From a virus (Duplodnaviria; Heunggongvirae; Uroviricota; Caudoviricetes): a DNA stretch of 9,541 nucleotides. The translations under genes were made by a program, and so were the position numbers. This document shows positions 185-6,107 of this stretch, in pieces; positions within the stretch are counted from its first letter, which is position 1, and every line of letters starts with the position of its first letter. The DNA lies in the IMG/VR virus record IMGVR_UViG_2548876863_000015; one strand, written 5' to 3'. The notes beneath the pieces are model-generated. The model made no database searches. It was not told the DNA's origin and worked only from the letters and a program-made list of their open reading frames with translations.

Positions 185-1408
185 ATGAGCAGGGCAATTC
201 ATAGACTTAGCGACACTCTTTTACGAAAATTAAGCGGATCACCAACCACAAAAAGCACCTTTTTTAATGATGGTGGCAACCTTAGCGTAAGGCATTCAAC
301 CAATGGCCTGTTAACCTGGTATTTCACTTACAGGTCCGGAACTGGTAGGCAGATATCACCTGAACGTCTGAGGCTGGGAAATTATCCAGATTTGAGCCTG
401 AAAGCAGCCAGGGAAAAAGCGTCGCAATGTCGCGCATGGCTGGCTGAGGGGAAAAATCCGCGCTATGAACTTAATCATGCTGTACAGGACGCGTTAGCCC
501 CCGTGACGGTTAAGGAAGCGCTCACTTACTGGCTTGAATCGTACGCAAAGGAAAAGCGCACTGACTACGAATCACTGAAAAGCCGGATCAATAAACACAT
601 AATTAGCCAGATTGGAGCTATGCCACTGGAAAAATGCGAGCTACGCCACTGGCTGGCCTGTTTTGACCAGCTTGCTAAGCGTAATCCGGTATCAGCCGGA
701 TTTTTGCTACAGGTATGCAAACAGGCGCTTAAGTACTGCCGAAAACGACGATACGCAATCAGCAACGTTCTTGATGATATGGTTGTCGGTGATGTTGGGA
801 AAAAAGCAGAAATAAGCGAGCGCGTACTAACAAACAAGGAGCTTGGGGAATTACTACGCGCCCTTGATGAAAAAATTTACCCACCGTACTACAGCGCCCT
901 GATTCGCCTCCTGATTGTCTTCGGATGTCGTACCACTGAGCTAAGACGCTCTGAGGTCCAGGAATGGGATTTTAAAGAAATGCTCTGGACCGTGCCGAAA
1001 GAACACAGCAAAACGAAGGTAGCAATATTCAGGCCAATACCGGAAGCGATCTTGCCGTTTGTCATGAAGCTGGTGGAGCAGAACAGGCACACGGGCTTAT
1101 TGCTCGGAGAACTGAAAGGGCAATCATCCGTATCAGAGTACGGAAGAACGGCACACAGACGCATTAATCAAGCCCCCTGGACGTTGCACGACATCCGGCA
1201 CACGTTTACAACGATGCTGAACGATTTAGGCGTGGAACCGCATGTTGTGGAGCAGCTTACCGCGCACCAGTTGCCAGGAATGCAACGAGTCTATAATCAC
1301 TCCCGTTATCTTGATGCAAAACGTGACGCTCTTAATCTATGGGTTGAGCGCCTCGATGTGCTGGCTGGAAATCATGAAAATATTGTTATGCTGAAGGTGG
1401 CCAAATGA
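185..1408 (+). CDS. int: Tyrosine recombinase / integrase, P4-type (N-terminal arm-binding domain plus C-terminal catalytic domain)
   Basis: 407-aa ORF. N-terminus (LSD...GLLTWYFTYRSG...LGNYPDLSLKAAREKA) fits the arm-binding domain pattern of P4/CP4-57-type integrases. C-terminal part carries the catalytic Arg in TTELRRSE, the HDIRHTF (H-x-x-R) box and a terminal Tyr region (VYNHSRYLD). Weak SD. Confidence 0.9.
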   Translation: MSRAIHRLSDTLLRKLSGSPTTKSTFFNDGGNLSVRHSTNGLLTWYFTYRSGTGRQISPERLRLGNYPDLSLKAAREKASQCRAWLAEGKNPRYELNHAVQDALAPVTVKEALTYWLESYAKEKRTDYESLKSRINKHIISQIGAMPLEKCELRHWLACFDQLAKRNPVSAGFLLQVCKQALKYCRKRRYAISNVLDDMVVGDVGKKAEISERVLTNKELGELLRALDEKIYPPYYSALIRLLIVFGCRTTELRRSEVQEWDFKEMLWTVPKEHSKTKVAIFRPIPEAILPFVMKLVEQNRHTGLLLGELKGQSSVSEYGRTAHRRINQAPWTLHDIRHTFTTMLNDLGVEPHVVEQLTAHQLPGMQRVYNHSRYLDAKRDALNLWVERLDVLAGNHENIVMLKVAK

Positions 1409-2178
1409 AATTACCTAAAAGACTCTATTATCCGTTACCTGAAGCGGCAGAAAAGTTAGGCTGTGCAATAAAAGATCTTTATCATTACGCATATATAGGT
1501 GCTCTTAATATTTCTGTATATATACCAAAAATTGATGCTAAAAAATTCAATTTTTCATTATGTCATTTTATCAATGGTTGTAATGAGGAAGAATTAATAA
1601 AATATCCTTTCAATGATGAATCTGCTGTTTTTGGAAGTAATTTTACAGTTGGTTTAACTGGTGACACTGAATTTTTAGATAGTGCCATTATTGGTCCTGT
1701 AGGGAATTCTATCAAATGTTATTATGTTAGCAGCTTATCAGGGTTTTATTATACTCCGGCATATGTTTTTGCTGATGTCGAATTTAGCATGAGACAATAT
1801 ATAAAATGTTCTCATCTTACGAATAAGTATGGTGATGATAATCTCATGTATGTTTTTTGTAAGGGTGGTTATGAATTTGATGTTAACTATTTGTGTGTGA
1901 TGGCTAGTGATTTAGATAATATAAAAAATACGGGAGACTTCCCGAAGATAACAGAAGATAGCCCAAAAGCATCGTCAAAAAGGAATGAGGTTATTTACTC
2001 TTTAATTAAACTTATTCCAGAAATGGGTGATGTAGACCTGGACACGGAATCATTACCTAAAATAGCAGATTTAATTGATTCTATAGCTGCATCCAGAGGG
2101 ATAGAATTTCCAAAAACACATTGGCAGACATGGCAAAAGTATTTGGGGCGTGAATCTCAACAAAAACGTAAAAAGTGA
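1405..2178 (+). CDS. Hypothetical protein, 257 aa, AT-rich, no domain recognised; candidate accessory/cargo gene
   Basis: Start overlaps the int stop (ATGA at 1405-1408), suggesting translational coupling. Composition is visibly AT-rich (roughly one-third G+C by eye) against about half in flanking genes. Uninterrupted 257-codon frame, Tyr/Phe/Asn-rich, basic C-terminal tail (QQKRKK). No Walker, HEPN or nuclease motif recognised by eye. Confidence 0.7.
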   Translation: MKLPKRLYYPLPEAAEKLGCAIKDLYHYAYIGALNISVYIPKIDAKKFNFSLCHFINGCNEEELIKYPFNDESAVFGSNFTVGLTGDTEFLDSAIIGPVGNSIKCYYVSSLSGFYYTPAYVFADVEFSMRQYIKCSHLTNKYGDDNLMYVFCKGGYEFDVNYLCVMASDLDNIKNTGDFPKITEDSPKASSKRNEVIYSLIKLIPEMGDVDLDTESLPKIADLIDSIAASRGIEFPKTHWQTWQKYLGRESQQKRKK

Positions 2179-2203
2179 TATCACGTGCTGGTAGTGTGAT
2201 ATC
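2176..2203. promoter_or_regulatory. Two copies of the perfect palindrome GTGATATCAC separated by 8 bp; candidate regulator binding site
   Basis: GTGATATCAC at 2176-2185 (overlapping the orf257 stop codon) and 2194-2203. A TAGAAT -10-like hexamer follows at 2229-2234 without a good -35. Confidence 0.4.
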
Positions 2204-2234
2204 ACACAAACGGCGTTTTACTACCGCCTAGAAT

Positions 2235-2269
2235 CGTCCTCGTTCGGCAACGTTCGAGGACGTTTTTTT
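2235..2269 (+). terminator. Rho-independent terminator that also contains the alpA Shine-Dalgarno
   Basis: 8-bp stem CGTCCTCG (2235-2242) / CGAGGACG (2255-2262) with a 12-nt loop, followed by a T7 run (2263-2269) that abuts the alpA ATG at 2270. The only SD-like sequence for alpA (GAGGA, 2256-2260) lies in the 3' arm of the stem. Confidence 0.6.
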
Positions 2270-2494
2270 ATGAATCAAAATACACAATTTCAATCACTAT
2301 CAGATCGCGTAATCCGTGAGGATGAATGCCGTAAGTTAACAGGAGTGTGCCGCACTACACGCTACGAACTGGAGAAAAAAGGGAATTTCCCGTCACGCCG
2401 TAATCTGGGTGGTCGTTCAGTAGGTTGGCTGCTTTCCGAGGTTATGGAATGGGTTAAAAGCCGGGATCGTATTAATTCAGGTAAGGCAGCGTAG
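2270..2494 (+). CDS. alpA: AlpA-family transcriptional regulator / excisionase-like HTH protein
   Basis: 74-aa ORF. Motif ...CRKLTGVCRTTRYELEKKGNFPSRRNLGGRSVGWLLSEVMEWVKSR matches the AlpA / phage-regulatory HTH family pattern (L-TG-S--T-Y-----G-FP----LG-R-V-W--SEV--W). Position immediately downstream of int is typical for Gram-negative PICIs and P4-like islands. Confidence 0.8.
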   Translation: MNQNTQFQSLSDRVIREDECRKLTGVCRTTRYELEKKGNFPSRRNLGGRSVGWLLSEVMEWVKSRDRINSGKAA

Positions 2495-2828: not shown

Positions 2829-2912
2829 GGTGTAAGACAATATACACGAAAAAAAAATATTTTGAAGGGTTGACGTGTAAGACACCGTTATTTTACATTG
2901 TGTCTTACACCT
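2829..2912. promoter_or_regulatory. Divergent promoter region with three copies of the operator-like motif GTGTAAGACA(C)
   Basis: GTGTAAGACA at 2830-2839; GTGTAAGACAC at 2875-2885; inverted copy GTGTCTTACAC at 2900-2910. Plus-strand sigma70-like promoter TTGACG (2870-2875), 18-bp spacer, TACATT (2894-2899), with operators overlapping the -35 and following the -10. Minus-strand -10 TATATT (complement of 2839-2844) abuts the first operator. A-tract at 2850-2864 between the two promoters. Confidence 0.55.
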
Positions 2913-3007
2913 TGTTGATGCAAGGTACAGAAAAGACGAAACCCGGCAGTGCGTCAACACTAACCGGGCTTCTAACCACCAACGATAGCAACAGTATCGA
3001 GGTAGCT

Positions 3008-5863: not shown

Positions 5864-5876
5864 TTTTTTGTAAAAG

Positions 5877-6107
5877 CCCTCTACCCCATCTACCTGAATG
5901 AAATAAACGCATATTATTCAACATGATAAGTGGGTAGAGGGATAGGTAGAAGGCTAATAAAACCCCTCTACCCCCTCTACCATGATTAAGGTCGTTTGTG
6001 AGGGGCGGGTAGAGGATGGGTAGAGGGCCACGAAAAGTCCTCTACCCATCTGAAAGCCGCGCCATTACTGACCTGAAAGATGATTAGGTAGAAGAGGTAG
6101 AGGAGGT
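5877..6107. repeat. Iteron array; putative replication origin
   Basis: About 11 copies of an 8-10-bp motif (C)CTCTACC(C) / GGGTAGAG(G) in alternating orientation clusters: 5877-5895 (direct x2), 5932-5952 (inverted x2), 5962-5980 (direct x2), 6007-6026 (inverted x2), 6038-6049 (direct), 6087-6107 (inverted x2). AT-rich segment at 5896-5930. Located directly 3' of the replication gene, as in SaPI/PICI origins. Confidence 0.7.

Follow-up and report, generated by a model that had tools for sequence, protein, structure and literature searches.

The window, by which we mean the whole stretch of 9,541 nucleotides analysed here, is a complete E. coli phage-inducible chromosomal island (PICI). It shows a size of about 10 kb, att repeats at both ends, co-oriented int, alpA and primase genes and few packaging genes, without lysis or tail genes. 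An att core repeat at 1-11 and 9531-9541 bounds the island, which sits between yljB/cspD and clpS according to the RefSeq annotation. Pfam searches and the RefSeq annotation identified int, alpA, a D5-type primase gene, terS and a capsid gene. The int gene (185..1408, plus strand) encodes a tyrosine integrase with an Arm-DNA-bind_3 domain (PF00589 and PF13356; RefSeq annotation) and is the origin of the read-through transcription heading towards alpA. The following gene, orf257 (1405..2178, plus strand), overlaps the int stop codon by ATGA and terminates at its own TGA (2176-2178). orf257 is AT-rich; its product has a variable central part, a conserved C-terminal region of about 70 residues and an N-terminal region of about 50 residues predicted to form an excisionase/MerR-like winged helix-turn-helix (wHTH) that resembles the fold of Xis, RdfS and BldC. 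Downstream lies alpA (2270..2494, plus strand), encoding a 74-residue protein of the Phage_AlpA family (PF05930, E = 3e-16). No start codon other than the ATG at 2270-2272 is possible for the conserved AlpA domain, and RefSeq annotates this one too.

By sequence and by modelled fold, AlpA is an excisionase-type wHTH protein. It matched the excisionase 8C3T by sequence (E = 1e-7), which was also the top fold match, and is homologous by sequence to TorI (31% identity, E = 3e-5). The structure model itself was of low confidence (pLDDT 65), and the TorI fold match was weak (rank 7, E = 0.5). The PHROG annotation of the protein reads 'excisionase and transcriptional regulator'. In the literature, AlpA is the master activator and recombination directionality factor (RDF) of Gram-negative PICIs: its role as the helper-induced switch for excision and induction has been published (PMC6092414, PMC11773190, PMC10803314), and it is required for excision and replication of Gram-negative phage satellites and sufficient when overexpressed. 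How a helper phage turns alpA on is an open question according to PMC6092414 and PMC10803314. The Pseudomonas aeruginosa AlpA (PMC7969949, PMC9371919) shares with the PICI protein its name and the presence of a terminator between promoter and target gene. It is an unrelated, larger, Q-like processive antiterminator with a 21Q-like fold, a ring-forming N-terminal segment, a C-terminal helix-turn-helix at residues ~126-142 in a chain extending beyond residue 140, and loading at the ABE between -35 and -10. The island AlpA is 74 residues long, and its fold matches are excisionases and MerR-type wHTH proteins; the idea that it acts as a Q-like antiterminator of its own leader terminator was therefore rejected. 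A search of the genome contigs with AlpA returned only four distant, irrelevant loci.

The alpA leader contains a hairpin at 2235-2262. As the original prediction had claimed, it is an 8-bp GC-rich stem, with the 5' arm CGTCCTCG at 2235-2242 carrying an anti-Shine-Dalgarno CCTC and the 3' arm CGAGGACG at 2255-2262 (both plus strand, supported by folding and covariation). The only Shine-Dalgarno (SD) sequence of alpA, GAGGA at 2256-2260, lies in the 3' arm 9 nucleotides before the ATG and pairs with 2237-2241 (UCCUC in the RNA). A run of seven T residues (2263-2269, plus strand) abuts the start codon, also as predicted, and would serve both as the U-tract of a terminator and as the spacer between SD and ATG. 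Six of the eight stem pairs are G-C, and the U-tract follows the stem directly, so that the stable GC-rich stem-loop and the adjoining U-run of an intrinsic terminator are both present here. Folded alone, the hairpin had an energy of -17.6 kcal/mol (z = -4.63), and none of 200 shuffled sequences was as stable; the region 2170-2290 as a whole folded at -37.9 kcal/mol (z = -4.89). The predicted stem thus stood, with a difference in one detail: the 12-nucleotide apex is not a plain loop but has a 2x2 TT/TT internal loop followed by 2 bp and a GCAA tetraloop, and it carries two sequence boxes described below. A consensus terminator scan gave no match at the hairpin, solely because the 12-nucleotide apex exceeds the loop limit of 8 in the tool. 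Rfam had no match at the hairpin leader. We rejected a minus-strand terminator at this position because the minus strand lacks a T-run.

We then compared 11 distinct leaders, with relatives from six genera. The 8-bp helix was paired in 95.5% of cells, compared with 30-53% for slid controls; four of the eight pairs had changes on both sides, and the variants CTTG/CAAG and CCTG/CAGG occurred outside this covariation count. The covariation indicates that the stem is more than a chance structure. All relatives have an SD motif (GAGG, GGAG or AGGG) in the 3' arm, giving the arrangement of a fold-back that sequesters the ribosome-binding site: an SD in a conserved stem arm and an anti-SD partner upstream. 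An inverted repeat of this kind, a 28-bp near-palindrome beside a promoter-like hexamer, might instead be a double-stranded DNA operator for a dimeric protein. The helix, however, contains 10 G·U cells, which are compatible only with pairing in the sense-strand RNA, and the arm sequences vary freely while the pairing and the SD stay; we consider the operator reading barely credible. Judged from these leaders, the SD-sequestering stem is selected as a sense-strand RNA structure.

The T-run has a different distribution. It is kept in the E. coli, Citrobacter and Salmonella relatives, missing in L127, L128, L131 and L132, and marginal or interrupted in four others; the stem and the SD pairing are kept throughout. 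Since about four relatives have lost the T-run and retained the stem, the comparison indicates that SD sequestration is the conserved feature and termination a lineage-specific addition. The original prediction that read-through transcripts are both terminated and silenced is therefore supported in part: compensatory changes and G·U pairs support the conserved SD pairing, and the loss of the U-run speaks against the terminator as a conserved feature. One could also regard the hairpin as the plain intrinsic terminator of int-orf257, with an incidental SD overlap, no embedded promoter, and alpA expressed by read-through once a factor of the helper phage or of the island suppresses termination. 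The anatomy is that of a strong terminator (8 bp of GC-rich stem, U7 and many A residues in the 5' flank), expression of alpA depends on a helper phage, and the promoter-like hexamer discussed below has no -35 element. We nevertheless think this reading unlikely: the leaders with a lost or interrupted U-run retain the stem, the SD within its arm and the hexamer; the SD of any read-through RNA would still be locked in a stem of -12 to -18 kcal/mol; no nut- or qut-like elements were seen; and the P. aeruginosa AlpA that acts like Q is another, larger protein.

Adjoining the stem on its 5' side is the -10-like hexamer TAGAAT (2229-2234, plus strand), a putative promoter element. In 9 of 10 divergent leaders, whose upstream flanks are otherwise unrelated, such a hexamer stands at -40/-41 from the ATG, and its variants directly 5' of the stem are TAGAAT, CAGAAT, AAGAAT and AAAAAT. 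In the L128 leader it is conserved although unpaired in the predicted fold. From its position and conservation, we infer that the hexamer is the -10 element of an alpA promoter. An RNA beginning about 7 nucleotides past it (2241) would be free of the anti-SD arm, and the folding prediction leaves it unstructured (-4.7 kcal/mol, z = 0.59). The leader comparison revealed no conserved sigma-70 -35 element for the hexamer that scored better than 3 of 6, and the promoter would therefore depend on an activator. The upstream 'TTACC' was rejected as a -35 element because its spacing is inconsistent. With regard to the predicted transcript from TAGAAT that would free the SD, hexamer conservation and the unstructured RNA are thus in its favour, and the missing -35 element is against it. 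Since the U-rich spacer that follows the stem is often its pairing partner, the hexamer could be conserved for structural reasons unrelated to a promoter.

Two palindromes lie further upstream, at 2175-2184 and 2196-2205. They were correctly predicted as exact copies of GTGATATCAC and are spaced 21 bp start to start; the first overlaps the orf257 stop codon, and relative to the predicted transcript start they are centred at about -62 and -41. Chance predicts about 0.01 to 0.02 occurrences of an exact 10-mer in 9.5 kb, and two identical self-palindromic copies 21 bp apart were observed. They are invariant in E. coli, Citrobacter, Salmonella, Providencia and one metagenome relative, and are replaced in Klebsiella by the symmetric variant GTGAATTCAC. 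The spacer between the palindromes drifts, and the distance from palindrome to hexamer is fixed. What the original prediction overlooked is their strict tie to one gene family: they occur only alongside orf257-family genes, are absent where a DUF6387 gene is present, and stay unchanged across orf257 proteins of only 31-60% identity. This co-occurrence, together with the predicted DNA-binding fold, makes the orf257 protein a candidate binder of the palindromes. Lambda-type operators and CRP or CII sites were rejected by eye, as half-site order and spacing do not fit.

The copies of GTGATATCAC are also complementary to each other and could form a 10-bp RNA stem of -12.3 kcal/mol at the 3' end of the orf257 mRNA, acting there as a stabiliser or processing site and not as alpA operators. 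The arms of such a stem are conserved and the loop between them is variable, and the element, which overlaps the stop codon of orf257, accompanies that gene in every case. Yet the 10 bp of each arm also form a perfect palindrome in their own right, a symmetry that RNA pairing would not require and that chance would give in about 1 of 1000 cases, and with centres 20-22 bp apart the two sites face the same side of the helix. In Klebsiella, GTGAATTCAC keeps its dyad symmetry in one copy while the second copy is degenerate, which breaks the RNA stem, and the distance to the hexamer is fixed. We regard an RNA element as distinctly unlikely and favour DNA operators of alpA. A bolder extension, to which we give similarly little credence, is that the orf257-family protein is the master regulator and helper-phage sensor of this class of Gram-negative PICIs: a dimer would sit on the GTGATATCAC operators at -41 and -62, and a helper protein acting on its variable domain would fire alpA. 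Were this so, the protein would functionally correspond to the Stl repressors that Gram-positive PICIs have, and in sister islands DUF6387 proteins would take its place.

The hairpin apex carries two CGTTCG boxes 10 bp apart (2241-2246 and 2251-2256, plus strand), candidate sites for AlpA as an RDF. These RDF-type boxes were missed in the original prediction, whose account of the hairpin was in this respect incomplete. Boxes of the same type with 10-bp phasing occur in both att arms on the plus strand. The attL arm has a block of two TGTTCG boxes (23-28 and 33-38) and a block of three to four (96-101, 106-111 and 116-121, with a degenerate box at 126-131); the attR arm has a cluster at 9394..9429, with TGTTCG at 9404, 9414 and 9424 and a degenerate box at 9394. 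Within the window, an exact GTTCG-N5-GTTCG is found only in attL, attR and the alpA leader. Across 69 loci covering 350 kb, the relaxed pattern GTTC[GC]-N5-GTTC[GC] fell almost only in attL and the int-alpA interval, with about 2.7 occurrences expected by chance. Scanning viral contigs for exact matches to the boxed hairpin yielded only the same E. coli islands, together with unrelated coding matches in high-GC phages. Sister islands have a sequence resembling a THI box at their att site; Rfam did not confirm it, and it was dropped.

The boxes resemble those of a characterised RDF. In the prophage KplE1, the TorI sites have a GTTCG core, 10-bp phasing and an organisation in blocks of two and three (PMC2951348), and the two-plus-three architecture of attL here matches the TorI site layout in KplE1 attL. 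Phased repeats are thus found both at att and at the regulated gene, as for an RDF that is also a regulator, and by analogy with TorI the leader boxes are probably AlpA binding sites. Alternatively, they might be arm-type sites of the integrase or a by-product of the hairpin sequence that no protein binds. Integrase arm sites, more typically than RDF sites, are found on both att arms, as these boxes are; in leader types A to C the boxes lie within an inverted repeat, and they take opposite orientations in different lineages. Against this, the sites mapped for TorI in KplE1 are GTTCG sites, and IntS has different arm sites there (PMC2951348). A separate 12-bp doubled motif on both arms varies with the integrase, whereas GTTCG follows AlpA. 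The fifth base of the box (G, A or C) covaries between the att arms and the region upstream of alpA according to AlpA type. The apex is conserved as a sequence and not as a pairing: the inner helix is only 77% paired, and at one of its two pairs 4 of the 11 cells lack pairing. Moreover, phased boxes precede alpA in all leader types, including types D and E that have no hairpin. We hold the integrase or by-product reading to be very unlikely and retain AlpA as the probable ligand.

Taken as a whole, these features lead us to a model, which we judge slightly better than even, in which the int/orf257-alpA junction is a composite gate and AlpA synthesis depends on where the transcript starts. Transcripts from int/orf257 would carry both arms of the hairpin, and the 8-bp GC stem with U7 would terminate most of them. 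The remaining read-through RNA would go untranslated because its SD, GAGGA, would be paired with the UCCUC anti-SD. A weak promoter of alpA itself would initiate at about G2242; given that TAGAAT adjoins the stem, the resulting local mRNA would lack the 5' arm and have a free SD. This promoter, without a -35 element, would be controlled through the two identical dyad operators at about -41 and -62, most likely by a dimer of the orf257-family protein, or else by a helper-phage or host factor. The apex boxes match the RDF boxes of the att arms, and AlpA may therefore occupy its own leader between about +1 and +15 and feed back on its own synthesis. Boxes so placed make us lean, for this leader type, towards a limiting, negative feedback. 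The published AlpA autoregulation, in EcCICFT073 (PMC6092414) and EcCIMP1 (PMC11773190), is positive and runs against the repression that this position suggests.

None of the leader cis-elements is described in PMC6092414, PMC11773190 or PMC10803314. They comprise a covarying stem that hides the SD, a hexamer placed such that only the local mRNA would be translatable, AlpA-type boxes common to the att arms, and an operator pair tied to one int-overlapping gene family. Jointly, they would explain how a constitutively transcribed integrase module can lie upstream of a toxic switch gene without leakage, and they give handles on how helper phages switch satellites on.

The arrangement has parallels in mobile elements. 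In IS10 and IS50, transcripts entering from outside pair the ribosome-binding site, and the element's own promoter starts within or after the pairing sequence, so that only its own transcript is translated. Davis, Simons and Kleckner (1985, Cell 43:379) reportedly described this control of read-through transcripts, known as fold-back inhibition, for IS10/Tn10 and IS50. The alpA leader is similar in having a sequence that pairs the ribosome-binding site and a predicted start of its own inside the stem. It differs in that the product under control is a phage-satellite RDF and activator and not a transposase, the stem in this lineage doubles as a putative terminator, the apex carries candidate protein-binding boxes and the transcript start is predicted only.

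P2 Cox, 186 Apl and P4 Vis are dual-function RDFs. Like TorI and RdfS, they are small wHTH proteins that bind 10-bp-phased repeats in att and in a promoter; RdfS of ICEMlSym binds attP as well as its own promoter, and it keeps its own level in check (PMC11963761). The likeness to TorI extends to the GTTCG core at the candidate AlpA boxes. Unlike the sites of these RDFs, the boxes here lie in a transcribed leader, inside an SD-sequestering hairpin, and on both att arms. The RDFs also bind their repeats, whereas AlpA binding here is predicted only, and the published autoregulation of PICI AlpA is of the positive kind. Close in organisation are EcCICFT073 (PMC6092414), EcCIMP1 (PMC11773190) and the PICMIs (PMC10803314), which share the order int, optional overlapping gene, alpA and replication genes, and whose AlpA is helper-induced, needed for excision and induction, and autoregulated. 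The leader of EcCICFT073 differs from the one described here in having no hairpin, a GTG start codon and boxes about 300 nucleotides upstream.

The 9,541 bases correspond exactly to one complete island, bounded at both ends by the 11-mer core repeat ATGATAGTTAT (1-11 and 9531-9541). Judged from its sequence, the gene organisation is that of a Gram-negative phage-inducible chromosomal island (PICI). The tyrosine integrase gene int (185-1408) is followed by orf257 (1405-2178), a 257-aa ORF of no known function whose start and the int stop share ATGA (1405-1408), and by alpA (2270-2494), which encodes a 74-aa Phage_AlpA protein; then come a YlcI-like gene in reverse orientation and genes for an Icd-like protein, DUF4222, a D5-type primase, the small terminase and the major capsid protein. 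Identical copies are present in E. coli 2014C-3061 and in O157:H7 and O121 strains, between yljB/cspD and clpS. A comparable overlap is seen in Vibrio PICMIs, whose 'iolg' genes are required for excision; in sister islands the orf257 slot is taken by DUF6387 genes. AlpA of Gram-negative PICIs is a helper-induced, autoregulated master activator required in excision (PMC6092414, PMC11773190); in related PICMIs it is an excisionase that alone suffices for excision (PMC10803314).

Re-reading of the sequence recovered every element listed in the original prediction, which had proposed a terminator hairpin that hides the alpA Shine-Dalgarno (SD) sequence, at its assigned coordinates. The 5' arm CGTCCTCG (2235-2242) faces the 3' arm CGAGGACG (2255-2262), which contains the SD GAGGA (2256-2260), 9 bases upstream of the ATG at 2270, and a run of seven T residues (2263-2269) follows. 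The hairpin folds with -17.6 kcal/mol, a stability reached by none of 200 shuffled sequences. A generic terminator scan did not list it, solely due to the 12-nt apex. A minus-strand terminator-like hairpin (2521-2540) directly after the alpA stop is probably the terminator of the convergent YlcI-like gene, so that hairpins flank alpA on either side.

Leaders for comparison were taken from E. coli genomes, IMG/VR contigs, contigs with a more distant AlpA (59-68% identity) and contigs of Salmonella, Klebsiella and Providencia encoding orf257 homologues. The set comprised few (∼12) independent leader lineages. In the alignment of 11 distinct leaders the 8-bp helix showed standard pairs in 95.5% of cells and two-sided changes (CG to UA, UA to CG) in four of its eight pairs; sliding the partner by 1-3 columns lowered pairing to 30-53% of cells. 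Further compensatory variants were CTTG/CAAG in Providencia and CCTG/CAGG in Klebsiella. The helix contains 10 G·U cells, which only sense-strand RNA can form; these rule out a DNA operator and identify the hairpin as an RNA structure. A purine-rich SD (GAGG, GGAG or AGGG) lies within the 3' arm in every relative, as predicted. The terminator anatomy of the prediction is present in this leader, with seven U residues after the stem, but not throughout: the U-run is present in E. coli, Citrobacter and Salmonella leaders, interrupted (ATTTATCT) at four loci (L125, L126, L133 and L135) and absent from four more, L127 (GTTAACCA), L128 (ATCACTTA), L131 (ATACATAA) and L132 (AATCATTT). Since the U-run varies while the stem and the SD in its arm are kept, SD sequestration is the predicted conserved function of the hairpin, with the predicted termination a trait of this lineage.

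The -10-like hexamer TAGAAT (2229-2234) adjoins the 5' side of the stem. In 9 of 10 divergent leaders a hexamer (TAGAAT, CAGAAT, AAGAAT or AAAAAT, with A in second and T in sixth position) sits at -40/-41 nt from the ATG, directly 5' of the stem, and the sequences further upstream are unrelated. The hexamer frequently pairs with the U-rich spacer 3' of the stem, and part of its conservation could therefore be structural; it is, however, more conserved than its pairing partner and is retained in L128 even though it is predicted to be unpaired there. A start about 7 nt downstream would be at G2242 or the next bases, with purines at the equivalent positions in all relatives, and RNA beginning at 2241 is without significant structure (-4.7 kcal/mol, z = 0.59). 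A -35 element was found in none of the leaders examined; an activator would thus be required for a promoter of this kind. The conserved hexamer and the unstructured RNA support, but do not prove, the embedded alpA promoter that had been proposed at TAGAAT.

Two exact copies of the palindrome GTGATATCAC (2175-2184 and 2196-2205) lie upstream. Every orf257-family island carries TGATATCA twice, at -94 and -73 from the ATG, and among the islands compared it is absent from those with a DUF6387 gene or an empty slot. Mutual identity of the orf257 proteins is only 31-60%, with conserved N- and C-termini and a variable centre. Palindrome 1 is invariant except in Klebsiella, which has the symmetric variant GTGAATTCAC; the 11 nt separating the palindromes drift, and their distance to the hexamer is constant within 1 nt. 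Each copy is a perfect dyad by itself, a symmetry that pairing between the copies as RNA would not call for. Assuming a start at 2241, the palindromes are centred on -40.5 and -61.5 and share one face of the helix. Co-occurrence and fold make the orf257 protein a reasonable candidate for the palindrome binder.

The hairpin apex contains two plus-strand CGTTCG boxes (2241-2246 and 2251-2256), 10 bp apart, which the original prediction had overlooked. Within the window, GTTCG-N5-GTTCG occurs only in attL (24, 97 and 107, plus 117 with the degenerate second box GTACG), attR (9405 and 9415) and the alpA leader (2242), always on the plus strand. TorI, the recombination directionality factor (RDF) of prophage KplE1, binds five attL sites in blocks of two and three with cores GTTCG, GATCG and GTCCG, and its binding represses the intS promoter (PMC2951348). 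In the K-12 sequence the block of three is GTTCGtcatgGTTCGcttcaGATCG, with the same 10-bp phasing as the boxes in the window. AlpA is 31% identical to TorI over 62 residues (E = 3e-5), and its best solved relative is the GIsul2 AlpA-family excisionase (8C3T). Across 69 non-redundant loci (350 kb; pattern GTTC[GC]-N5-GTTC[GC]), phased pairs are nearly confined to attL and the int-alpA interval, against a chance expectation of ∼2.7 for the whole set. Between int and alpA, hairpin leaders have them at -26 to -29, a second leader type at ∼-140 and the EcCICFT073 type at ∼-300. Hairpin-less type D leaders (L054/L055, 2955-2985) have three CGAAC boxes ∼140 nt upstream, a diluted version of the hairpin-leader layout. 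Boxes of the att arm and those upstream of alpA covary in their fifth base: E. coli hairpin types have G, Klebsiella has A and the EcCICFT073 type has C. The boxes are conserved although pairing at the two inner base pairs of the apex is not, and some lineages carry the boxes inverted (CGAACG...CGAACG), which fits a double-stranded DNA site. Most probably, AlpA binds these candidate sites in its own leader. Given box positions of about +1 to +15 relative to the putative promoter, we lean towards self-limiting feedback; RdfS limits itself at its own promoter (PMC11963761), and TorI is likewise a repressor at PintS. Positive AlpA autoregulation was published for leaders with boxes far upstream (PMC6092414, PMC11773190), so feedback of either sign may operate in the hairpin leader.

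In the mechanism we propose, the hairpin and U7 would stop read-through from int/orf257, and RNA passing them would have its SD locked in the stem. An activator-dependent promoter with its -10 against the stem would yield mRNA lacking the anti-SD arm, the sole translatable alpA mRNA; two operators (-41 and -62) would control this promoter, and AlpA would come back to the two att-type boxes where its own transcript begins. Inferred here are where the transcript starts, that termination occurs, which proteins bind the two kinds of DNA site and the sign of the feedback. IS10 and IS50 ignore outside transcription by fold-back inhibition, which the first two steps resemble; the last resembles the dual-function RDFs TorI, RdfS, Cox, Apl and Vis. 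The underlying principles are already known; the leader cis-elements, not described in the literature found on AlpA, are an addition to the AlpA role covered there.

Both att arms also carry the 12-bp doubled motif GGTGTAGTTAAT x2, or GGTGTAGT(C/T)AAT x2 (139-162 and 9436-9459), which becomes GTGTGGTCAGTT x2 in islands with a different integrase, GTTCG being unchanged. It is similar to the 'doubled motif' described in HE-PICI attP and is therefore probably the better candidate, compared with GTTCG, for the integrase arm sites. The 73-nt arm-site block is repeated in both arms (96-168 and 9394-9466) in the same orientation with 74% identity. Sister islands at the rcnR-side site adjoin a THI-box-like sequence (GGGGTGCCCTTC..GCTGAGAAATACCCGTAT; L002 400-470, L004 120-180, L005 1-50 and the attL side of L134), which scored below the Rfam gathering score in L004 1-400.

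Other repeats occur along the island. Three exact copies of GTGTAAGACA, two direct (2830-2839 and 2875-2884, plus strand) and one inverted (2901-2910, minus strand), against 0.3 expected by chance, lie in the divergent region from the YlcI-like to the Icd-like gene and have the look of operators for the main island operon. The minus strand at 2935-3007, immediately upstream of the Icd-like gene, weakly matches the Rfam SymR antitoxin RNA (E = 0.002; 33.8 bits, where the gathering score is 61); the match may mark an antisense or immunity RNA or be due to chance. Iteron-like CCCTCTACCC units, both direct and inverted (5871-6063), follow closely on the primase gene, where a PICI would be expected to have its replication origin. 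Direct and inverted AAAAGTTACAC repeats (7033-7316), at the start of and within the small-terminase gene, may be a packaging site. Between the capsid gene and attR there is an 88-nt direct repeat (8695-8782 and 9232-9319, 95% identical), and 27-nt palindromic units (CGATATGGGGATCACCATATCGGG) are found at 8668-8694, 8791-8817 and 9322-9340.
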